The translations under genes were made by a program, and so were the position numbers. Source: Leptolyngbya sp. BL-A-14 (lineage in GTDB: Bacteria > Cyanobacteriota > Cyanobacteriia > Leptolyngbyales > Leptolyngbyaceae). From it: DNA of 64,000 bases. How positions within the stretch are numbered: position 1 is the first letter of the stretch; every line of letters starts with the position of its first letter. Of this stretch, positions 580-64,000 are shown in pieces. The notes beneath the pieces are model-generated. The model made no database searches and was not told where the DNA came from. It saw only the letters and a list, made by a program, of their open reading frames with translations. The stretch is from the NCBI GenBank assembly GCA_041937185.1, contig CP166621.1, positions 2,324,571-2,388,570 of the forward strand. Direction: 5' to 3'.

Positions 580-591
580 GAAGAGGCAAAG

Positions 592-700
592 GGATGAGGG
601 ATGAAGGCTGAGGGATGAATTAGCTTTGAAGATTGGAGAGTGGAGACTACTCCCCACTCCCTATTCCCCACTCCCCACTCTCTACTTACTTCCGCGACTG
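592..700. repeat. STRR-like heptamer tracts (GGGATGA units, then CCCCACT units)
   Basis: Tandem 7-mers visible directly downstream of dnaA. Confidence 0.7.
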
Positions 701-3522: not shown

Positions 3523-3637
3523 TTAGTCAGTTTTAAAGCCTTCGGCATGGCTTCGCTAGAGGAGTTGGTTTTTAGTTTTTAGCTAGAACAAGCGCTGCCT
3601 TTTCTCTCCTTCTAACAACTAACAACCAAAAACCCTC

Positions 3638-3676
3638 CTGCCCTCTGCCTTCTGCCCTCTGCCTTCTGCCTTCCTC
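3638..3676. repeat. STRR-like heptamer tract CTGCC(T/C)T; reverse complement of the GGCAGAR tracts at 54.8 and 57.4 kb
   Basis: ctgccctctgccttctgccctctgccttctgccttc. Confidence 0.7.
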
Positions 3677-4109
3677 ACGCAGGTTGTGCTGGTTCTGGCA
3701 GACTGGCTTCCATTTTGAGGCAGTTGAGACCATCCACTTGCAGTTGATATTCAACACGATCCATCAGGCGATTGAGGATGAGCCAACCATAACCACCTTC
3801 TTGCAGAAGCTCTGGAGTGGGCTCCGTGTAGGCTGTCACATCGTAGCCAACGCCATGATCCCAGATTTCAAGCGCAATATCACGATCGTGCAGCTCCAGG
3901 CGAATTAACACTGGCAGCGCAGGCTGATCTTTGTGTGCATGGCGGACAACATTTGAATAGGCTTCAACCAGGACTAGCCGCAAGCGATTGGACTGCCGTG
4001 TCCAATCGACATGATTGCCCAGTTCTACCTCCAGGCTACCCAGAAGCCAGTTTTCGACAATGGATAAAAACTTTAGGTCACTGGGTACGTGTAGCTCAGT
4101 TCTCATCAA
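3675..4109 (-). CDS. anti-sigma regulatory factor / serine protein kinase (RsbW/SpoIIAB-like HATPase_c)
   Basis: 144 aa; GHKL ATPase-like motifs (…VEAYSNVVRHAH…DHGVGYD…GYGW…); directly follows a PP2C gene. Confidence 0.75.
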   Translation of the reverse strand: MMRTELHVPSDLKFLSIVENWLLGSLEVELGNHVDWTRQSNRLRLVLVEAYSNVVRHAHKDQPALPVLIRLELHDRDIALEIWDHGVGYDVTAYTEPTPELLQEGGYGWLILNRLMDRVEYQLQVDGLNCLKMEASLPEPAQPA

Positions 4110-6069: not shown

Positions 6070-6130
6070 GTTCCTGCCTTCGGGTTCCTGCCTTCGGGCT
6101 CCTGCCTTCTGCCCTACTCCCCACTCCCTC
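6070..6130. repeat. Tandem 14-mer (GGTTCCTGCCTTCG) x3 followed by CCCCACTCC
   Basis: ggttcctgccttcgggttcctgccttcgggctcctgccttctgccc. Confidence 0.7.
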
Positions 6131-50882: not shown

Positions 50883-52732
50883 TTAATCTTCGATTGTCTC
50901 AACTAGAAACCAATTTCCCGCACTATTTAGCTGCCCTGACACAGTCAGAGTTTGATTAGAATCTTTTGTCGCGAGATAGGCGTTGATGGCTGAGTCAAGA
51001 GTGACCAGATGAACGATCAGCGTTTTGAGTGTGAACGGTTCCACGATTTCTATCGTGTATGTTTGCTCGTCTAAGCGCTGAAAGATCCCAGTCACGGCTG
51101 GTTGAAGGGTGCTATCGCCCTTTGTAGAGACCAAAGGACTCTGGGAGCGATCGCGCTTAAGTTGCCGCGTGGGGCAATTGCCATCCACTGGGTAGGCTTC
51201 TGGATGATCAAGGTAGTAGTGCTGCCAGTAAAGCCAATCGGGGTCATGTAGGGGAGAATTCAGCAAGGGAATGACCGCAGCAGGGGCGATCGTATCGCTC
51301 AGGAGTGCTTCCTGGAGCGATCGCACGTCTAGCTCCCGTGGCTGGCAACCTTGTTCTATACAAAGTGCTGCTGCCATCCCCGCTGCCTGCCCGATTCCCA
51401 AAACAAGTGGCTGTAACCGTGTGGCACCGTTCGCCATGTGGGACACAGAGATATTCTTTTCACACGCCAAAAGTCCATCTGTTTTAACGGGTACGAGCGA
51501 TCGATAGGGGATCGTGAACGGCGTACCTGTCCAGCGTCCACCCCAGCGCATTGACTTCGGCTTGAGTGTGATGTCTCCACTGGGGTAGTGATGGTCATTA
51601 GCGTAGTTGCCGATCGCGATCGCGTCACAAACATTTTCTGCTTGCAGGCAGCCCTGACCCGAGATGACGATCGGCAGCGACGCAACACATCCATTGTGAA
51701 TTGGCAGAATGTCTTGCTCGCGCACAGTCGTTAGCCCACGCAACCGCCGACTTTCCCGGTAATACGGGTGCAGCGCATACGCCCCACCCCCAGCTTTTCC
51801 CTAGCCCCTGTCCCCTGTCCCCCATCCCCTTCAGGAAACACGTCCTCTGCCAACCCATACCGCTGACCAAGCTGCTGCTGAATCAGGCGTGCAAAACTTT
51901 GTGTATGCCACCGCGCTTCTTGCAAAAATTCTCTCCGTTTTTTCTTAGAGAGAAGACGGTCAACCCCTTCGCCATAATCATTACCGTGGATCGGCCAGTT
52001 GATCATGAAGCGGTTGCCGGGTAAGCGTCCGTAGTTAAGAAAGCGATCGCCCCCGTACTGATCCCAGGCTCCTTGAAAGCGATCGGGCGCATCGTTGGGT
52101 GGTGCGGGGATCTCAGGCGCTGTTTCACCTTCACCGTAGTCCTGCATCACAACGACCCATGTTGGAGCTTGCACTGGGTACTGCTGGGTCAGTTGGTTGG
52201 CACTAACGGGCGCGCTGGGTTCGTTAAACTCTGACTGCAACTCCCAACCCCAACGGTGTGGCACTTCGCCAAGAGCTAATAGGTCGCCCAGTTCTGTCCC
52301 ATCGATTGTTATTTGAGCGCTGATCGTTACCGTTTGGAAGCGAACACCACGAATACGATCCCCAGTCCAAAGAACCTCTTCTGGTGTTTGTCCAGCAATC
52401 CACTGAAGATTTGGCAGTGCGGCCACCCAATCTGCAAAAATCTGCGCGCCAACACGTGGATCGTAGGTGAAGAAGCTGACCCAGCCGTGATCCAATCCTT
52501 CTAGCTGTCGTTGTCTGAGTTCTCGCAGAAACGCTCCCCAAAGACCAGTCTGAAAGGCAAGTAACTCATTGCCATCGGGTGCAGAGACGCCTGCACTCGT
52601 CAACATGCCACCCAACCAGCTAAATTCGCTAACGAGGATTGTCTTTGCCCCCCGTCGGGCTGCTTGAATGGCAGCGGCAGTGCCCCCCGTGCCGCCACCC
52701 ACCACCAAAACATCGGCTTTTAGTTCTTGCAT
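50883..52732 (-). pseudogene. FAD-dependent oxidoreductase split into two ORFs (52732-51731 and 51743-50883) by a short G-rich STRR-like insertion that shifts the frame
   Basis: N-terminal ORF has GGGTGG dinucleotide-binding motif and ends in a repeat-encoded tail (…EGDGGQGTGAREKLGVGR…*); the C-terminal ORF resumes in another frame with native-looking …ALHPYYRESRRLRGLTTVREQ…; repeat at 51784-51830. Confidence 0.6.
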
Positions 52733-52907
52733 TGCATCGTCACCTTAAGAAAGCTGCGGTTGCAAGCATTCGCTCGCCCGCTTCCGTAAGCAATAGGGTA
52801 ATGGTTTGTCGGGTACGATCGCGCAAATAGCGATCGTGCAAACTTTCGGGCACTCCACCGCCATAATGGAAACAACCCATCAGAATCAACGTTGTGAGAC
52901 GAAACCA

Positions 52908-53795
52908 ATGGTATTCACCGCTCAAGAGCTAGAAGCCATGATGCCTGATGCTACCCAGCTTTTGAGCGACGAGCCAGAGATGGAAAGCTCCCTTCACTAT
53001 GCTCAACTGGCGCTCCTGGTTGCTTGTCTGGAGTGGCTATGGCGTGACCAAACGGACTTTTTTATTGGTGCAAACCTTACCATCTACTTCAGCCGCCAGC
53101 AACTCCGCAACCGAGATTTTCGTGGGCCAGACTTCTTCCTTGTCAAACATACCGAGCCACGACCACGCAATGCCTGGGTGGTGTGGGAGGAAGATGGACG
53201 CTATCCTGATTTGATCATTGAGTTGCTCTCTACATCAACCGCCACTGTCGATCGCACCCTGAAGAAAGACCTGTATCAAAACCGTTTTCGGACACCAGAG
53301 TACTTTTGGTTTTCACCAGAAACGCTTGAATTCCAGGGCTTTCGACTGATAGGGCACGAATATGAAGCGATTGCTCCCAACGAGCATGGCTGGCGCTGGA
53401 GTGAAGAACTTGAACTTTACCTGGGTATAGACGCGAATCAGTTACGCTACTTCAGCGCTCAGGGTGAGAAGGTGCCAACATTAGCGGAAGCGATCGCGCA
53501 ATCAAAGTCAGAGACAGAGCAAGCAAGGGCAGAAACAGAGCAGGCAATCGCCCAGGCACTACAGGCACAACAACAACTTGAACGTGAGCGCCAAACTTTA
53601 GCACAAGCGGAGGGACAGCTCGAACAAGCTGAACAACAGCTCGAACAAACTGAGCAACAGCTCGAACAAACTGAGCAACAGCTCGAACAAACTGAGCAAC
53701 AGCTTGAGCAGGAACGGCTACAACGGCTTGAGGCTCAGCAGCGTGCCGAACGGTTGGCAGCCCGTTTAAAAGCGATGGGCATTGATCTCGATTAA
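52908..53795 (+). CDS. Uma2-family (DUF820) putative endonuclease with a C-terminal heptad coiled-coil
   Basis: PD-(D/E)xK-like Uma2 core (…DFFIGANLTIYF…PDFFLV…PDLIIELLS…); C-terminus carries (QQLEQTE)n encoded by 21-bp tandem repeats. Confidence 0.75.
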   Translation: MVFTAQELEAMMPDATQLLSDEPEMESSLHYAQLALLVACLEWLWRDQTDFFIGANLTIYFSRQQLRNRDFRGPDFFLVKHTEPRPRNAWVVWEEDGRYPDLIIELLSTSTATVDRTLKKDLYQNRFRTPEYFWFSPETLEFQGFRLIGHEYEAIAPNEHGWRWSEELELYLGIDANQLRYFSAQGEKVPTLAEAIAQSKSETEQARAETEQAIAQALQAQQQLERERQTLAQAEGQLEQAEQQLEQTEQQLEQTEQQLEQTEQQLEQERLQRLEAQQRAERLAARLKAMGIDLD

Positions 53796-53817: not shown

Positions 53818-54405
53818 CTATTTTTCTTGCCCGATCGGCTCATCAATGGCGGCACTTTTCATCGAGGCAGCTGGAAGCGTTGGGTTCGTCCCCGCATTCA
53901 AGTGATTTCCTTGCGGTTCCACATTGATGCCCTTCACCTGCTGCATCAGACTTGCCATTTCTAACGCACTCATTGCGTAGTTCCAGCCCAGGTTGCTCTT
54001 GATACCTGCTCGCTCCAGGGCTTGCTGCATTGTGTCAGTCGTCAGCACTCCAAAAATGACGGGCACTCCTGTCTGGAAGCCGACGGCTGCAATACCCTTG
54101 GAGACTTCTGCTGCCACATAGTCAAAATGGGGTGTTTGACCTTTGATGATGGCACCGAGACAGATAATAGCGTCGTAACGATTGGTCAGCGCTAGCTGCC
54201 GGGCCACTAAAGGCACTTCAAAGCTACCAGGCACCCAGGCGTAGTCGACCTGTGTCCCGTTTGGATCGGTATTAACCCCGTGCCGCTTAAGACAATCCTG
54301 GCAGCCTTCTAAAAGCTTTGTGGTGACCAGGTCATTAAACCGACCAATCACGATCGCAAACCGCATGCGGTCTGTTTGAGTGAACGTTCCTTCAAAAACT
54401 GCCAT
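53818..54405 (-). CDS. ribH: 6,7-dimethyl-8-ribityllumazine synthase
   Basis: …[13 protein letters not shown]…, …[20 protein letters not shown]…. Confidence 0.9.
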
Positions 54406-54533
54406 GTGCTTCTCAATTTAAAGACCTTCCCCACCAGCGCAGGACTTATAGAATGGACGTCTCTTGCTGATGGGGCATACGTTGATCTTAAGCGAGTGTT
54501 CTTATCGCGGAGTAATCTGTAGACCAGATACGA

Positions 54534-54722
54534 TTAAACAACCAGGTAATTCAGTCCTCCTACCAGCAGAACCAGCACTGTCCACACAATCGAACCGAGA
54601 AAGATAAGACGCTTGGACTGATCCCAATTTTGTGGGGTTGCGAGAGCGACTGGCGCACCAACAACCATCACAAACGACAAAATAACTAGAGCCGCCAGGG
54701 AAATCTGGAAGACGATGGTCAT
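54534..54722 (-). CDS. psbZ: photosystem II reaction-center protein Z (PsbZ/Ycf9)
   Basis: 62 aa [62 protein letters not shown]; GGAGAAG RBS upstream of the ATG at 54722. Confidence 0.85.
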
Positions 54723-54845
54723 AATTTCCGCTTCTCCAATACAGCGATAGATTAGGCATAGGACATCAATGCGGACGATCGCACACAGCCCCACTTAAGT
54801 AAGCTATCAGAAAACTGTACCTATCTTATGGAGGGATTTGGGATT

Positions 54846-55012
54846 GGAGGAGAAGGCAGAGGGCGGAGGGCAGAAGGCAGAGGGCAGGAGGCAGGAGGCA
54901 GGGGGAGCAGGGGGAGCAGGGGGAGCAGGGGGCTAAAGGCTAAAAGGCTGGACTACTGACTCATGCATGGTTAACTCATAACTCATAACTCATAACTCAT
55001 AACTCATAACTC
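54846..55012. repeat. composite STRR-like tract: GGCAGAR heptamers, GGGGGAGCA units, GGCTAAA units, then (AACTCAT)x5-6
   Basis: Divergent promoter region between psbZ and the CCA enzyme gene is composed almost entirely of tandem short units. Confidence 0.8.
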
Positions 55013-55025
55013 TCTCTTCCCTCCC

Positions 55026-58010
55026 ATGCATCTCATCCTCTGCCACACGACTGCTGATTTCGACACATTGGGTGCGGCTGTTGGGCTGACGCGCTTACAG
55101 GCGGGTGCGCGTATTGTGCTGGCGGGTGGGACGCATGCTGCTGTAGGCGATTTTTTAGCCCTGCATCGGGATGAGTATGGTTTGATCGAGCGTCGATCGG
55201 TGAAGGCAGCCCAAATTCAAGCGATCGCTGTTGTGGATACGCAGTTTCGCGATCGGCTAGGCAAGGTTGCAGAATGGCTTGATTTACCAGATGTCGAAAT
55301 TTCGGTTTATGACCATCACCTCGGTGTGGAGTCTGACATTCAAGCAACCAAACGCCAGATTGAAGCTGTTGGGGCAACGACAACCCTGATTGTAGAGAGC
55401 CTTCAGGCGCAACAGGTAACGCTCACGATCGCCGAAGCGACCGTCATGGCATTGGGCATTCACGTGGATACGGGTTCGCTAACCTTTGACCAGACGACGG
55501 CACGGGATGCCAAAGCCTTGGCATGGTTGCTGGAGCAAGGAGCCAATTTGAGAACGATCGCTCATTATGCCGATCCAGGTCTTCCAACGGAGCTGCAGCC
55601 GTTGTTGACGACAGCCCTCAAGGCAATGCAAACCGAAACTGTGCACGGTAGAACAGTCAGTTGGGTGATGTTGACGCTGGATAGTTTTGTCCCAGCTTTA
55701 TCCAGTTTGGCATCGCACCTGATGAGCCTGACAGATAGTGATGCGTTGCTGCTGGCGGCAAACTACTGCAAGAATGCTGCCTGCCGTTCCAACCCTGAGG
55801 AGAACGACGATCGTGCCTTAACTGTCATTGGGCGATCGCGCATTGATGGCACTGATTTGAACGCCCTGTTTAGCGCGAGTGGTGGCGGCGGACACCCCCT
55901 TGCTGCGTCAGTGAATCTTCGTGCCGTTGACCCACAGGAGACCCTTGCCGAATTGGTGGCTCAATTCAAAGCACAAATTCCCCAGCCGCCAACAGCGCGA
56001 GACCTGATGTCCTCACCTGTCCGTACCATTCGGCCCGAAACTACGATCGAAGAGGCACAGCGATTGCTCCTACGCTACGGGCACTCTGGCTTGTCGGTGG
56101 TAGAAGCCAATGGGCAGCTCGTCGGTATGATTTCGCGCCGTGACCTGGATATTGCCCTCCATCATGGGTTTAGCCATGCCCCTGTTAAGGGCTACATGGC
56201 CACCAACCTCAAAACCATCACGCCCGACACCTCTCTGCCTGAAATTGAAGCGCTGATGGTGACCTATGACATCGGTCGCTTACCCGTGCTGGATCAGGAT
56301 CAGCTTGTGGGGATTGTGTCTCGTACAGACGTATTGCGCCATTTGCATCAGGCAATCAAGAGGCAGGGGACAGTGGACGGGGCGCAGGGGACAGGGAGCA
56401 GGGACACACGTGCCTTTACTTCTGACTCCACCGCAAGGGGGAAGCACGCGACACTCTTAGCTTCTGACTCCTTGCTCCTGACAACTCTGCGTCAGTGTCT
56501 TACCCCTGAACTCTGGCAGGTCTTAGCAGCAGCAGCGGCAGAAGCGGAACAGCGAGGATGGCATCTTTATCTGGTGGGGGGAGCCGTGCGAGACCTCTTG
56601 CTGGCGATCGCGGCTGGCACCGCTACAACTGGCAACCTTTTGCTGGAAGATGTGGATCTAGTGGTAGATGGGTTTCATCGGGCAGCGGATGTGGGGGCAG
56701 GGGTTGAAATGGCGCGATCACTCCAAACCCTTTATTCCGAAGCGCGTCTGGAGGTTCACGGCAAATTTCAGACGGCAGCGTTGCTGTGGCATAACGATCC
56801 GATACTCAAATCGCTCTGGGTTGATTTTGCGACGGCCCGCACAGAGTTTTATCCTTACCCAGCCGCCAACCCGGAAGTAGAAGCCAGTTCAATTCGGCAG
56901 GATCTGTATCGTCGCGATTTCACCATTAACGCGATGGCAATCCGCCTGACCCAGCCCCATGCAGGCGAACTGCTTGATTTTTTTGGTGGAATACTTGACC
57001 TGCAAGCAAAGCAGATTCGTGTTCTCCATGCCAACAGTTTTATTGAAGATCCCACGCGGATCTACCGGGCCGTGCGCTTTGCGGTGCGTCTGGGCTTCCA
57101 ATTAGACAGCCAAACAGAAGGGTACATTCGTTATGCGATCGCCAGTGGCGTTTACGCTCAGGCACATCAAAGCCACGATCGACCACCCAACAAGTCACCC
57201 ATAACCGCACCGGCTCTGCAAACTCGACTCAAGGCGGAACTCAAATACATTCTGCAATCGCCTTACTGGAAGCCTGCGCTGAAGTATCTGGCTGAGCTAG
57301 GGGCGCTGCAATGCATTCACCCAACCTTGGCGATGGATAGGGACTTGTGGCGGCAACTGCGGTTGGTTGATCGATGGTTGAGGAGGCAGGAGGCAGGAGG
57401 CAGAGGGCAAGAGGCAGAAGGCAGAAGGCAGAAGGCAGGAGTTGGGGAAGCAGGGGGAGCGGAGGGGGCAGAAGGCAGAGGGCAGAAGGCAGCTTTTATC
57501 CTTTATCCTTTATCCTTCAGCCTTCCCCCTTCATGGTTAGTGCTGCTGGAAGTGCTGCTCGCTCATCTTGCCGCCGAGTATCGCGGTCTTGTCGCAGAGA
57601 GGCTTCAGCTACCACTGGATAGTATCGAACGGTTGCAGCAGTTAGAAGTGGCTCAAACCAACCTGATGAATGCCCTGCCAACCTGTCAGCGTCCGAGCGA
57701 ACAAATTCAGCTGCTGAAGCCGTATGACCCACTGCTTTTAGCGTTGATTGCGGTGCATAGTGGACGATCGACGTCGAAGGCCGCCAACGATGTATCACCC
57801 CGTCGCAAAATCTGGCAGTATCTCACCTGCTGGAGCAACCTTAAGCCGCTCTTAGATGGGAACGATCTCAAAACAATGGGCTACAAACCCGGCCCACAAT
57901 TCAAGGCAATTCTGGATGCACTCCTAGCCGCTACCGCAGACGGCGTCATTTGTACCCGTGCTGAAGCAGAACAATACGTTGCAAAAAACTTCCCTATACG
58001 AGACAAATAG
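55026..58010 (+). CDS. multidomain CCA tRNA nucleotidyltransferase / poly(A) polymerase family protein with N-terminal DHH-DHHA1 and a CBS pair
   Basis: DHH (…VYDHH…); DHHA1 (…GGGGHPLAAS…); two CBS domains; Pol-beta NTase head (…LYLVGGAVRDLLL…RRDFTINAMAI…); two in-frame repeat-derived low-complexity insertions. Confidence 0.8.
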   Translation: MHLILCHTTADFDTLGAAVGLTRLQAGARIVLAGGTHAAVGDFLALHRDEYGLIERRSVKAAQIQAIAVVDTQFRDRLGKVAEWLDLPDVEISVYDHHLGVESDIQATKRQIEAVGATTTLIVESLQAQQVTLTIAEATVMALGIHVDTGSLTFDQTTARDAKALAWLLEQGANLRTIAHYADPGLPTELQPLLTTALKAMQTETVHGRTVSWVMLTLDSFVPALSSLASHLMSLTDSDALLLAANYCKNAACRSNPEENDDRALTVIGRSRIDGTDLNALFSASGGGGHPLAASVNLRAVDPQETLAELVAQFKAQIPQPPTARDLMSSPVRTIRPETTIEEAQRLLLRYGHSGLSVVEANGQLVGMISRRDLDIALHHGFSHAPVKGYMATNLKTITPDTSLPEIEALMVTYDIGRLPVLDQDQLVGIVSRTDVLRHLHQAIKRQGTVDGAQGTGSRDTRAFTSDSTARGKHATLLASDSLLLTTLRQCLTPELWQVLAAAAAEAEQRGWHLYLVGGAVRDLLLAIAAGTATTGNLLLEDVDLVVDGFHRAADVGAGVEMARSLQTLYSEARLEVHGKFQTAALLWHNDPILKSLWVDFATARTEFYPYPAANPEVEASSIRQDLYRRDFTINAMAIRLTQPHAGELLDFFGGILDLQAKQIRVLHANSFIEDPTRIYRAVRFAVRLGFQLDSQTEGYIRYAIASGVYAQAHQSHDRPPNKSPITAPALQTRLKAELKYILQSPYWKPALKYLAELGALQCIHPTLAMDRDLWRQLRLVDRWLRRQEAGGRGQEAEGRRQKAGVGEAGGAEGAEGRGQKAAFILYPLSFSLPPSWLVLLEVLLAHLAAEYRGLVAERLQLPLDSIERLQQLEVAQTNLMNALPTCQRPSEQIQLLKPYDPLLLALIAVHSGRSTSKAANDVSPRRKIWQYLTCWSNLKPLLDGNDLKTMGYKPGPQFKAILDALLAATADGVICTRAEAEQYVAKNFPIRDK

Positions 58011-58020
58011 CGCTTAAAAG

Positions 58021-58090
58021 CTACCACCCCATCCCCTATCCCCCATCCCCTATCCCCCATCCCCTATCCCCCATCCCTCCACCCATTCCC
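58021..58090. repeat. STRR-like heptamer tract (CCCCTAT/CCCCCAT)
   Basis: ccccatcccctatcccccatcccctatcccccatcccctatcccccatccc. Confidence 0.8.
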
Positions 58091-58156
58091 CTCCCGATCT
58101 AGCCTTTGGTGACGGCGAGACGTTAGCATGGTCACGACCTTTGGGAGCGATCGCCC

Positions 58157-59653
58157 ATGAACTTAACGGCTGGCACAGCGCTGCAACAGGGCAAATATGT
58201 CCTTGGTAACTCTTTGGCTCAAAGTGCGTTAGGGCTTACCTTTAGAGCGACTCAAGCGCGATCGCAACAGCCAGTTGTGCTGCAAACACTACGGGTTCAG
58301 CCGCAAACCGATATTGCCCATCTAAAGCGTCGGTTTATCGAGGAGGCACAGCGTTTGGCGCAATGTCAGCACCCCGGTTTAGTGCGCGTGCTGGATGTGT
58401 TTGAGGAAGGTGGGCTACCGTTTGCAGTACTGGATGATGTGGCAGGGCAGACGTTGGCGGAACGAGTACGATCGCGGGGACCGTTACCAGAAGCGGAGGC
58501 CGTACAGTATATTCGGCAGGCTGGTTCGGCGCTCAGTGTCATGCACCGCCAGGGCTTGCTTCATCGGGAGGTTAACCCAGAACACCTGATCCGTCCCAAA
58601 GGAGCGTCGTTTGTGGTGCTAGTCGGTCTTGGCATTGCCCATTATGCGGTGCTGGGTGTACCAGACAGTGCAGAAACGATATCTCCCTATGCCGCGCTTG
58701 AGCTACAGCAGCGACAGATCAATCTCACCCCTGCGGTTGACCTCTATGCGCTTGCGGGAACGCTGTACTTTTTAGTCACAGGGCAGGAACCGATCGCAGC
58801 CTTGCGCCGTACACAAACGCCTTTACGTTCGCCGCGTCAATTACAACCGCAGTTAAGCAGCGCGATCGAACAGGCCATCCTCAACGGTATGGCACTTAAC
58901 CCCTCAGAGCGACCACAAACCGTTGCAGCCTGGTTCTCGCTCCTGCCAAATCATCAACCAACGGTGCCAGGAGGAGTTCATGGCGCAGGACAACCGCGTG
59001 CGATCGACTTACCCAATCCAGTAGCATCCAACGGCTCTAGTCGCACAACTGCCCCTCCCGCACCCCCTTTAATTCCCGTAGTGGCAAGCACTCCCGTTGC
59101 ACCCACTCATGCTCCAGAAACTTATAGCCCAAACACTCATACGGTCGCAGCATCCAATCGCCCATCTCTCCCCACGCCGATGATTGCCAAAAGCCGCTTG
59201 CCTAAAGCACTGCTGCTAACCGGTGCTGTAGCGATCGCAGGGGGGGCTGGCTTGGGATTGGCACTGCGCCTGAGTGCGGCTCATGGCATTGGTCCGACGC
59301 TCTTTCAAACCCGGCAAGACTTTCCACCCGTGCAGAATTGGCCGTTACAAGCCGCTCCTGAGGAATTGTCAACCGCTCCACCACCGCCCGTAGACCCCTT
59401 GCCTATGCGCAGCTTTGCGCCTGCTCCCTTGCCCAAAGTGAGATACTCGCCCAGCCCATCACCCCAACCCGTCACGCCTGAACCTCTACCAAGCGCGACG
59501 ATCGAAGCCAGTCCCTTGCCCACGGCTAGCCCGACTATCCCTAGCGTTCAACCTTCACCCCAACCCAGTCCCGTCCCTTCGGCAGTCTTGTCTCCGCGCC
59601 CCCTTCCTTCTGTACAAACGCCTGCTAATGCTCCTGGCTTACAGCGTTTGTAG
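58157..59653 (+). CDS. Ser/Thr protein kinase-like pseudokinase with a Pro-rich C-terminal region and a predicted TM segment
   Basis: Kinase-fold order is recognisable, but the Gly-loop, VAIK Lys (here VVLQ), HRD/K (here HREVNPEH), DFG (here GLG) and APE (here ALE) positions are all substituted. Confidence 0.65.
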   Translation: MNLTAGTALQQGKYVLGNSLAQSALGLTFRATQARSQQPVVLQTLRVQPQTDIAHLKRRFIEEAQRLAQCQHPGLVRVLDVFEEGGLPFAVLDDVAGQTLAERVRSRGPLPEAEAVQYIRQAGSALSVMHRQGLLHREVNPEHLIRPKGASFVVLVGLGIAHYAVLGVPDSAETISPYAALELQQRQINLTPAVDLYALAGTLYFLVTGQEPIAALRRTQTPLRSPRQLQPQLSSAIEQAILNGMALNPSERPQTVAAWFSLLPNHQPTVPGGVHGAGQPRAIDLPNPVASNGSSRTTAPPAPPLIPVVASTPVAPTHAPETYSPNTHTVAASNRPSLPTPMIAKSRLPKALLLTGAVAIAGGAGLGLALRLSAAHGIGPTLFQTRQDFPPVQNWPLQAAPEELSTAPPPPVDPLPMRSFAPAPLPKVRYSPSPSPQPVTPEPLPSATIEASPLPTASPTIPSVQPSPQPSPVPSAVLSPRPLPSVQTPANAPGLQRL

Positions 59654-63095: not shown

Positions 63096-64000
63096 CTAAC
63101 GGCTGACTGCTGACCGCTGACCGCTGAGAGCCTCTAACCCCTTCCCCGACTGTAGTAGGCTCAGCGGCAAAGGCTCCTGGCTCAAATAGTTGGCATAAGC
63201 AGCGCTGAGATACAGGCGGTAAGTAGGCTGTTGGGCAATGTAAGTGGCAAAGAAGGCTAGACTGAGCGCATTTAAATAGCCACGCGCGATCTCCGGATCC
63301 GGTCCTGCCAAACCGGGGGGAATGTTCAGCACACCCGCATCGTTTGGCGCACCTCCCAGCATTGAAAAGTGCGTACCACGGGTGATCAGCGCAAGGTAAC
63401 GATCGGGCGTTGTCAGCCAGGTAAAGGGACGAATCTGCTCTGGTACCGCAGGCGTTACTGCATCATTGCTGCCCGCCATCAACATGACAGGCACTTGAAT
63501 CTGGCTCAAACTACTGCGCCCTAGTAGGCTACTGGTAATAGGGTTAACCGCCAGCACTGCCTTAATGCGGCTATCCTGCAAGCGTTCCGCCCTGGGTGGC
63601 AATGTTAGAGCCTGACACTGCACCAGCAGGGTGATATTGAACGTTTGTCCGCTCTGACAATCCTGTTGGAGTTGCGCGAGGTTGAGTGGTGCGCCTGCTA
63701 ATGCCAATGCCGCGTAGCCGCCCTGAGAGTGCCCCATCACGCCAACTTGCTGAAGATTGAGTGCTTGCAGACTGGTGTCGGTTCGCGATCGACGCTCAAG
63801 CTCATCCAACAAACGCGTCACATCCAACGGTTGATTGATCAGCTCAGCCACATCGGGCTCAAGTGCCCGTCCAGCCAGAAATTGTCGATATCGCTGAGCG
63901 CTATTGCCAGGGCTTTCGGGGATAGCAACTGCAAAGCCATAGGATGCCAGATGGGTTGCCAGATAAGCAAACGTGCTGCGATCGGAGGCGGCACCGTGCA
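63096..64000 (-). CDS. alpha/beta hydrolase (dienelactone-hydrolase/lipase-like), N-terminus runs off the window end
   Basis: GHSQGG nucleophile elbow; the reading frame stays open from 63851 to the window edge. Confidence 0.7.
   Translation of the reverse strand, partial: HGAASDRSTFAYLATHLASYGFAVAIPESPGNSAQRYRQFLAGRALEPDVAELINQPLDVTRLLDELERRSRTDTSLQALNLQQVGVMGHSQGGYAALALAGAPLNLAQLQQDCQSGQTFNITLLVQCQALTLPPRAERLQDSRIKAVLAVNPITSSLLGRSSLSQIQVPVMLMAGSNDAVTPAVPEQIRPFTWLTTPDRYLALITRGTHFSMLGGAPNDAGVLNIPPGLAGPDPEIARGYLNALSLAFFATYIAQQPTYRLYLSAAYANYLSQEPLPLSLLQSGKGLEALSGQRSAVSR

Follow-up and report, generated by a model that had tools for sequence, protein, structure and literature searches.

Heptanucleotide repeat arrays read in frame at two variable sites of a cyanobacterial tRNA nucleotidyltransferase gene

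Two tandem arrays of heptanucleotides were found in frame within the tRNA nucleotidyltransferase gene of Leptolyngbya sp. BL-A-14, in a 64,000-nucleotide (nt) stretch of its genome (GenBank assembly GCA_041937185.1, contig CP166621.1, positions 2,324,571 to 2,388,570; hereafter the window). The gene (55026..58010, + strand) is an intact open reading frame (ORF) of 994 amino acids (aa) with DHH/DHHA1 domains, a CBS-CBS pair and a class II nucleotidyltransferase (NTase) consisting of head, neck and helical body/tail. The first array (site 1) lies in the linker between the second CBS domain and the NTase head, and the second (site 2) in the loop of a helical hairpin in the C-terminal body/tail. 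Both keep the reading frame and sit at variable positions that are modelled with low confidence; they share ancestry with arrays in Stenomitos, comparable arrays were gained independently in other lineages, and turnover is fast. We propose that slippage-prone arrays of the short tandemly repeated repetitive (STRR) type are probably tolerated in permissive disordered loops of a functional gene and read there as disordered peptide. STRR-type heptamers are used for fingerprinting and are as a rule regarded as intergenic. The present gene offers a well-controlled case, in which two places in one housekeeping enzyme repeatedly take arrays, in frame, with lengths that differ among species 96-97% identical elsewhere.

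The identity of the gene was examined by domain, motif and structure comparison. Pfam matches in the 994-aa protein include CBS (3e-30), PolyA_pol (2e-26) and DHH, and the PolyA_pol head domain (PF01743) scores 93 bits against a cut-off of 23. The head-domain motifs GGxVRD, DxD, RRD and EDPxR are present, and the catalytic residues G518, G519, R522, D523, D542, D544, R629, R630, D631, E674, D675, P676 and R678 are invariant among 22 orthologs. Among solved structures, the T. maritima CCA-adding enzyme and the A. aeolicus A-adding enzyme come closest in sequence, matched over head and neck (E 2e-36 to 2e-34). An AlphaFold2 model of moderate quality, built on a 22-sequence alignment (mean predicted local distance difference test score, pLDDT, 69), aligns in Foldseek with T. 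maritima 5hc9 (E 4e-16, template modelling score normalized to the target 0.55, 516 columns) and also with A. aeolicus 4wby and 4wc2, covering about 480-520 columns across both enzymes with the helical C-terminal part included. According to this model the C-terminal half is a complete head-neck-body-tail module, and the N-terminal third resembles DHH phosphoesterases of the NrnA/GdpP type. The cyanobacterial protein has head/neck sequence and overall fold in common with the T. maritima and A. aeolicus enzymes and, unlike them, carries two variable segments. Because the ORF is open, the fold module complete and the catalytic motifs invariant, the gene is intact, with a predicted A- or CCA-adding specificity. 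The initial annotation of this DNA had named it a CCA-adding enzyme; the assignment to tRNA nucleotidyltransferases stands and CCA specificity is putative, since the best NCBIfam family is the A-adding tRNA nucleotidyltransferase NF041569 (454.7 bits over aa 1-782, under the curated cut-off of 1440). In Synechocystis the CC- and A-adding activities are split between enzymes (Tomita and Weiner, 2002, going by its title in the references of PMC3925840). The 994-aa protein is 100% identical to an NCBI entry of Leptolyngbya sp. BL-A-14; its nearest relatives are Stenomitos proteins with at most 83% identity, and its 90% cluster has one member.

The clearer of the two arrays is that of site 2. Its purine-rich part (57381..57494, + strand), detected by Tandem Repeats Finder (TRF) and by pattern search, contains about 13 GGCAGAR/AGGAGGC heptamers and, inside them, a AGCAGGGGGAGC block at 57441-57466. 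The pyrimidine-rich part that follows (57495..57535, + strand; TRF at 57495-57517 and inverted-repeat listing) consists of 3.3 copies of TTTATCC and then CCTTCAG CCTTCCC CCTTCA, is translated as FILYPLSFSLPPS, and has CCTTCAG-type units that are near the reverse complement of the GGCAGAA family. Over 57381-57492 the TRF arrays have periods of 7, 14 and 21 and scores of 80-101. The identity at a lag of 7 nt is 0.71 over 57381-57530, whereas the remainder of the coding sequence (CDS) averages 0.25 and does not exceed 0.31. Three consecutive GGCAGAR units with up to three mismatches match 20 times in the window (0.01 expected), in all cases within four tracts at 3636-3677 (-), 6093-6113 (-), 54848-54903 (+) and 57385-57494 (+); three of these four loci are non-coding, among them the intergenic copy delimited by TRF and pattern search at 3634..3677 (-). 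As had been proposed initially, site 2 therefore belongs to the same family as the tract in the gene's own promoter region and the tract at 3638-3676, and its link to the upstream tract is closer than family membership alone. Since 7 is no multiple of three, the arrays are read in the three frames by turns, which gives a peptide period of 7 aa (21 nt), as seen in the translation of the purine-rich part (RRQEAGG RGQEAEG RRQKAGV ...). For the same reason only heptamers that are free of stop codons on the coding strand can persist in the gene.

For the ortholog comparison 120 protein homologs were aligned and 80 orthologous loci (designated by L numbers) were fetched with their DNA, giving 81 CDSs together with the window. 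Both sites sit where the orthologs vary in length and sequence, and the alignment revealed no conserved equivalent sequence at either position. The basal form of site 2 is a 15-aa loop with the conserved consensus RCLRRFDPQxTLIHW between two helices, which is kept in 60 of the 80 fetched loci. In the window, 49 repeat-encoded residues (aa 788-836) take the place of the nine central loop residues. Because the majority of orthologs keep the consensus loop, site 2 of the window is best read as an expansion or insertion and not as a conserved ancestral linker. In the AlphaFold model aa 794-830 have a pLDDT below 50 and lie between confident helices. Array-encoded peptide segments include RRQEAGGRGQEAEGR... 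and RKKEEGR... (Leptolyngbya BL-A-14 and Microcoleus), and the insert peptides contain 59-80% disorder-type residues.

Site 1 is a decayed array. Seven degenerate GGGRCAG heptamers (56360..56408, + strand) form its purine-rich part, in which nt 56361-56408 encode the peptide RQGTVDGAQGTGSRDT (aa 446-461). The pyrimidine-rich part (56416..56485, + strand) retains relics of TSACTCC heptamers (TTACTTC TGACTCC ... TAGCTTC TGACTCC TTGCTCC TGACAAC), interrupted by 21 non-repeat bases. The initial annotation recognized this tract but began it at 56380, about 20 nt late. TRF detects it at 56364-56403 with 69-79% matches and a score of 38-46, weaker than site 2. The 40-nt core has a lag-7 identity of 0.70, while other 40-nt windows of the CDS reach 0.48 at most; the figures for the whole linker and for elsewhere in the CDS are 0.45 and a maximum of 0.32. 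With up to two mismatches CAGGGGACAGGGGA gives four matches in the window against 0.27 expected, found only at 56364-56398 (+) and 51804-51824 (-), which bears out the proposed family link with the tract in a neighboring oxidoreductase gene. A linker is present at site 1 in all orthologs, is variable in sequence everywhere, and measures 22-31 aa in most lineages and 48 aa in the window. Stenomitos rutilans (L001) has cleaner GGGGCAG/GGGGTAG units here, followed by seven TCACTCC-type units in register with the relics of the window. In the model, aa 445-482 have a pLDDT below 50 with confident elements on both sides. From these comparisons site 1 is an enlarged pre-existing linker rather than a de novo insertion. 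The initial claim of two in-frame repeat tracts with correct translations agrees with the TRF result and the lag-7 identity of 0.70-0.71; its description as insertions applies to site 2 and not to site 1, and its view of repeats tolerated as low-complexity linkers fits the variable positions and the low-pLDDT segments between confident elements.

One may ask whether both segments are ancestral linkers of the ordinary sort that resemble repeats by chance, with no repeat-derived expansion at all. The presence of a site 1 linker in every ortholog and the weak periodicity of site 1 in the window would fit this explanation. We consider it very unlikely, because the basal site 2 loop is conserved in most orthologs, the lag-7 identities of the two tracts are unmatched elsewhere in the CDS, the units belong to the families of intergenic arrays in the window, and the homologous site 1 arrays of L001 are cleaner. 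In several Nostocales orthologs (among them L006, L007, L013 and L023) the CBS-to-NTase linker has a period-8 and not a period-7 repetition, for example HQEEGHRSRGAEEQRSRGG (lag-8 identity 0.62). Octamer arrays seem to be read in frame at this linker there; the TRF output for the 81 CDSs includes 19 rows of period 8.

Other genomes besides BL-A-14 have these arrays. Stenomitos rutilans L001, the source of the 83% identical protein, and Stenomitos JTS-RE299 (L015) carry arrays at the same two sites, with edges and register in common with the window. At site 2 the three agree at the 5' edge, TTGAGGAGGCAGRAG, and again in the 3' part, where each has TTTATCC units and, ahead of TGG, a C-rich end; the interior differs, with 3.9 copies of TCAGCGG in L001 and GCCTTCA/GCCCTCA units in L015. 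Because edges and register are common to all three, the arrays predate the split of Leptolyngbya (the window) and Stenomitos and have since undergone turnover and decay. In a gene tree computed without the variable columns, clean heptamer expansions of site 2 (34-131 aa) fall into three clades that lie apart from one another, each with sister taxa that keep the basal loop. The first clade comprises the window, L001 and L015. The second comprises Microcoleus and the metagenome-assembled genome (MAG) OTE_58, with 4-15 copies of AGGAAGA or GGCAGAA followed by 4-9 copies of CCCCATT or CCCAATT in a loop of 53-131 aa, which is different in each Microcoleus species. The third is a single Chroococcidiopsis MAG (L010) with CGGGAGT, GGCAGAG and CCTCACT units. 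This distribution indicates that site 2 arrays were gained independently in Microcoleus and in a Chroococcidiopsis. Non-periodic expansions of site 2 occur in two more lineages, Hormoscilla SP12CHS1 and Phormidiaceae CTOTU46633. In two other orthologous loci, L051 (Trichormus NMC-1) and L057 (Rhizonema PD37), the tblastn match runs 0.5 kb and 1.6 kb, respectively, past an ORF of normal length (897 and 919 aa), which suggests an extra partial copy or gene fragment downstream.

Length variation was compared in Microcoleus as a proxy for the species of BL-A-14. The Microcoleus species representatives are 95.5-97% identical over the 2.7 kb outside site 2, and the 16 closest pairs have no indels there except one 9-nt gap in pairs with L069. 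Within every one of these 16 pairs the two site 2 lengths are 9-207 nt apart, always in frame. All 81 genes are open through both sites, and their site 2 lengths are all multiples of three, which means that only frame-preserving variants survive. In L059, GGCAGAA stands where the closest relatives have GGAAGAA; a single mutated unit has spread along the array. In addition, a module of about 40 nt, GTTCGGCAACGGATTCTGTAACGGATGTAACGGATGTC (GTTCGGCAACGGAT...), which encodes GSSATDSVTDVTDV and has an internal 9-nt GTAACGGAT repeat, occurs one to three times within Microcoleus site 2 (L049, L054, L060, L065, L069, L072 and L075; for example L075:10300-10427). The GTTCGGCAACGGAT module has been multiplied in tandem with adjacent AAGAAGG units into higher-order repeats. 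The flanks of the fetched loci contain no copy of it. The idea that the GSSATDSVTDVTDV module is a dispersed mobile element, like the small dispersed repeats or miniature mobile elements of cyanobacteria with units of about 20-40 nt at many unrelated loci and a target site, found no support in the fetched loci, where the module occurs only within site 2. The window inserts match their local repeat repertoire, as judged by the GGCAGAR pattern search. In Microcoleus the 16-kb flanks lack AAGAAGG and AATGGGG arrays, a scale that is uninformative on the local repertoire.

A repeat unit that is no multiple of three within an ORF is the classic design of a phase-variable (contingency) locus, which here would be toggled by gain or loss of single 7-nt units, and the rapid change in repeat number would suit such a switch. 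Contingency loci of host-adapted bacteria likewise have a slippage-prone tract of this kind in an ORF. The present gene differs from them in being a housekeeping gene with variation in 3-nt multiples only and no off-state alleles: no out-of-frame allele was found among the 81 orthologous genes. The imperfect units lower slippage, and CCA addition is an activity expected to be essential. Phase variation is therefore highly improbable as an explanation. An assembly or sequencing artefact in a repeat-rich region has to be considered as well, given that the source is a MAG and that a neighboring gene has a 1-nt homopolymer difference. An artefact is hardly credible, because dozens of independent assemblies, isolates included, have arrays at these sites, the frame is kept and the flanks are conserved.

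The relation between site 2 and the array in front of the gene raises the question of how the tract arose. The upstream (leader or promoter) array (54846..54949, + strand) contains eight copies of GGCAGAR, four of GCAGGGGGA and 2.5 of GGCTAAAA. Positions 54845-54940 and 57381-57476 align collinearly over about 96 nt (score 93, shuffles at most 41), and the alignment spans the switch from GGCAGAR to AGCAGGGGGAGC units. The two tracts have the same orientation and are 2.5 kb apart, and the 12-mer AGCAGGGGGAGC is confined to them in the 64 kb. This suggests copying or homogenisation between the two arrays, beyond mere family membership. It is possible, though we think other origins likelier, that ectopic recombination or gene conversion copied the site 2 tract ready-made from the upstream array, or the upstream array from site 2, and that the tract did not grow in place. 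The collinear composite, the exclusive 12-mer, the short distance and the common orientation all favor such a block copy. Homogenisation of two pre-existing arrays fits equally well, however, and Stenomitos has GGCAGAA-type units at the same site 2 edge, so that an array was there before any recent copying. The first unit of Chroococcidiopsis L010, CGGGAGT, resembles the ancestral loop codons CGAGAG and suggests growth in place; hints of in-place seeding are limited to this unit and to the AGG AGG CAG start in the window. A further idea, that the ancestral loop was purine-rich in its 5' half and pyrimidine-rich in its 3' half and that the arrays grew out of these halves, was rejected, as basal loops lack such an asymmetry (purine fractions 0.42 and 0.50).

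The frequency of arrays in this gene was compared with that in the surrounding sequence under one TRF setting throughout. Period 7 is the commonest TRF period in the 81 CDSs (76 of 191 rows), and 36 of the 81 orthologs have at least one array. Merged arrays of the heptamer type number 64, with 30 at site 2 and 19 at site 1; the two sites together make up about 10% of the protein. The nucleotidyltransferase gene has an array density of 0.240 per kb. For the other ORFs of 250 aa or more in these loci, with 8 arrays over 598 kb, the figure is 0.013 per kb, a difference of about 18-fold; the remaining, mostly intergenic sequence has 0.509 per kb.

One alternative is that the inserts are selected functional modules. 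Polyampholyte or proline-rich loops beside the tRNA-binding body/tail might tune tRNA binding, partner binding or condensation, or a G-rich mRNA tract might modulate translation, with repeat number as the tuning knob. In agreement with this, site 2 arrays have been gained independently at least three times, a purine-rich and then a pyrimidine-rich array is found in every expanded site 2 (11:0 in the gene), and arrays are kept across Microcoleus species despite rapid turnover. We regard selected modules as unlikely, because sequence, length (34-131 aa) and unit type are unconstrained, most cyanobacteria, sister taxa included, do without the insert, and the net charge of the inserts stays close to that of the basal loop (+1 to +7 against +1.8). 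A strongly cationic, RNA-binding extension was discarded for the same low charge, which does not grow with length. A structured RNA or hairpin in site 2 was likewise discarded: the inverted repeats are only 74-89% complementary, the fold of 57375-57545 is no stabler than those of shuffled sequences (z = +0.94), and Rfam gave no match at E <= 1 over 54400-58200.

We therefore return to the reading that heptamer arrays are tolerated in permissive loops. The tracts would be translated as disordered, hydrophilic or proline-rich peptide and would occupy the two most permissive places of the enzyme, the flexible linker from the CBS pair to the NTase head and the helix-loop-helix hairpin loop of the C-terminal body/tail. 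Arrays were in place already in the common ancestor of this Leptolyngbya and Stenomitos. Units would then be gained and lost by replication slippage or unequal exchange, mutated units would spread along the array, and sequence would probably be exchanged with the gene's own upstream array. Selection would act as a filter for frame, for stop-free units and for peptides compatible with disorder. The inserts themselves are most likely neutral or nearly neutral passengers, not functional modules.

Several points weigh against this reading. Low pLDDT by itself is weak evidence of disorder, all the more in a mediocre model. The activity of the enzyme with its tracts and the translation of the tracts are predicted from sequence. 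The 18-fold enrichment includes arrays that are partly non-independent (ten Microcoleus). The repeated gain at exactly one loop in three orders and the constant purine-then-pyrimidine order could mean more than tolerance. Finally, slippage alone cannot account for the 96-nt collinearity with the upstream tract, which argues for a contribution of array-to-array copying as well. A more far-reaching idea is that the gene is a preferred target, in which STRR blocks are actively copied between the leader and permissive ORF sites under a purine-then-pyrimidine assembly rule, producing a disordered loop, tunable by repeat number, on the tRNA-binding surface that alters the enzyme between close strains. 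The 96-nt collinear composite would exemplify such active leader-to-ORF block copying; we nevertheless give this idea little chance of being correct.

STRR heptanucleotides of cyanobacteria are said to go back to Mazel et al. in 1990, and the named units are STRR1 (CCCCAGT), STRR2 (TTGGTCA) and STRR3 (CAACAGT). The units found here (GGCAGAR, GGGRCAG, TTTATCC and CCTTCAG) differ from STRR1-3 and represent other families of the same kind of repeat. G-rich GGGGAYT heptamers are known from Nostoc PCC 7120 (Rehm et al., 2015, PMC4692102). As with STRR and the Nostoc heptamers, the arrays here are tandem 7-nt repeats of many families per genome, clustered, on both strands and often near start or stop codons. 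Heptamer arrays in cyanobacteria are over-represented in intergenic and under-represented in coding regions (PMC4692102); in contrast to the intergenic emphasis of the published surveys, the present arrays lie in frame within a conserved gene. The TAACTGA repeats of Beggiatoaceae and some cyanobacteria are mostly located a few nt upstream of start codons (MacGregor, 2015, PMC4679880). Rare copies, oriented so that they contain no stop, lie within ORFs, and an RNA polymerase beta-prime-like protein has one in a variable surface loop (PMC4679880). Tolerance at the periphery of a fold is the logic common to those copies and the present arrays. The TAACTGA in-ORF cases have 2-3 units in single genomes, whereas here 4-15 units, encoding up to 131 aa, occur in one orthologous loop across three orders with length variation at the species level. 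Our literature search found no description of repeats in this nucleotidyltransferase gene. We concluded that the gene is a new example of a known phenomenon, low-complexity loops derived from repeats; what it contributes is a hot spot that recurs at an orthologous position, long arrays, and variation at the level of species. The hot spot seen across lineages and the upstream collinearity merit follow-up. The gene may be useful as a natural system for the rate of array turnover, as a view of the selection filter (frame, stop-free units and disorder-prone peptides) and for testing how bacterial proteins gain low-complexity loops. For annotators, length differences in this gene family are repeat-driven, and in Microcoleus the site 2 loop could be used to mark strains.

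Other arrays flank the gene. A TAACTCA array of 5.9 copies (54972..55012, + strand) stops 14 nt short of the start codon and, since either orientation contains stop codons, can only be non-coding. A CCCCATC/CCCCTAT heptamer array (58027..58077, + strand) begins 17 nt past the stop codon. Across orthologous loci, a period-7 array lies within 200 nt upstream of the nucleotidyltransferase start in 31 of 78 cases, most ending 0-20 nt before the ATG, with unit families that vary by lineage (ACTGACC, TGACTAA, CCAGTCC, CCAATGC, TAACTCA and others). This frequency is a modest excess over the intergenic density of about 0.5 per kb; the position at the ribosome-binding region is striking. Arrays within 200 nt past the stop codon were seen in 7 of 77 loci. 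Where two skewed arrays are adjacent, the purine-rich one precedes the pyrimidine-rich one at a ratio of 11:0 in the nucleotidyltransferase gene, 5:1 elsewhere and 16:1 overall, in counts that are small and partly non-independent. Examples are window positions 590-680, 54851-55012, 56360-56485 and 57381-57535 and loci L010, L015, L040-L075, L048:4307-4568, L050:15186-15276 and L079:14960-15055. Because this order reads alike on both strands, it is a real asymmetry. In L015 and the window, and not in Microcoleus, the second array comes close to being the first one's reverse complement.

The relative of site 1 in the window, and the second locus of what may be written as the CAGGGGA family (two loci in these 64 kb of the genome), is an ACAGGGG heptamer tract at 51804..51830 (-). 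It lies within a flavin adenine dinucleotide (FAD)-type oxidoreductase gene that appears as two ORFs at 50883-52732 (-). The Stenomitos rutilans ortholog (L001:3892-5760, -) is one intact ORF of 623 aa with the ACAGGGG tract in frame, and a G-run just 3' of the tract (about 51775-51790) is 1 nt shorter in the window (CTGGGGGTGGGGCG versus TTGGGCGGTGGGGCG). Since the Stenomitos tract is in frame and the window differs in the G-run, repeat number is not the cause of the split, contrary to the initial proposal that the repeat divides this gene; the split is a -1 frameshift, which reflects either a true pseudogene or an error in sequencing the homopolymer. With the oxidoreductase, in-frame heptamer tracts are seen in two conserved genes. 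Elsewhere in the window, a 21-nt repeat, ACAGCTCGAACAAACTGAGCA, occurs in 4.3 copies at 53498-53710 within ORF 52806..53795 (+) and encodes an EQQLEQT repeat at the C-terminal end of this 329-aa ORF; as its period is a multiple of three, it differs in kind from the heptamers. A GCTGACC heptamer tract at 63099-63127 lies within stop-free minus-strand frames (63099-63998) at the window edge, and may overlap the end of another gene.

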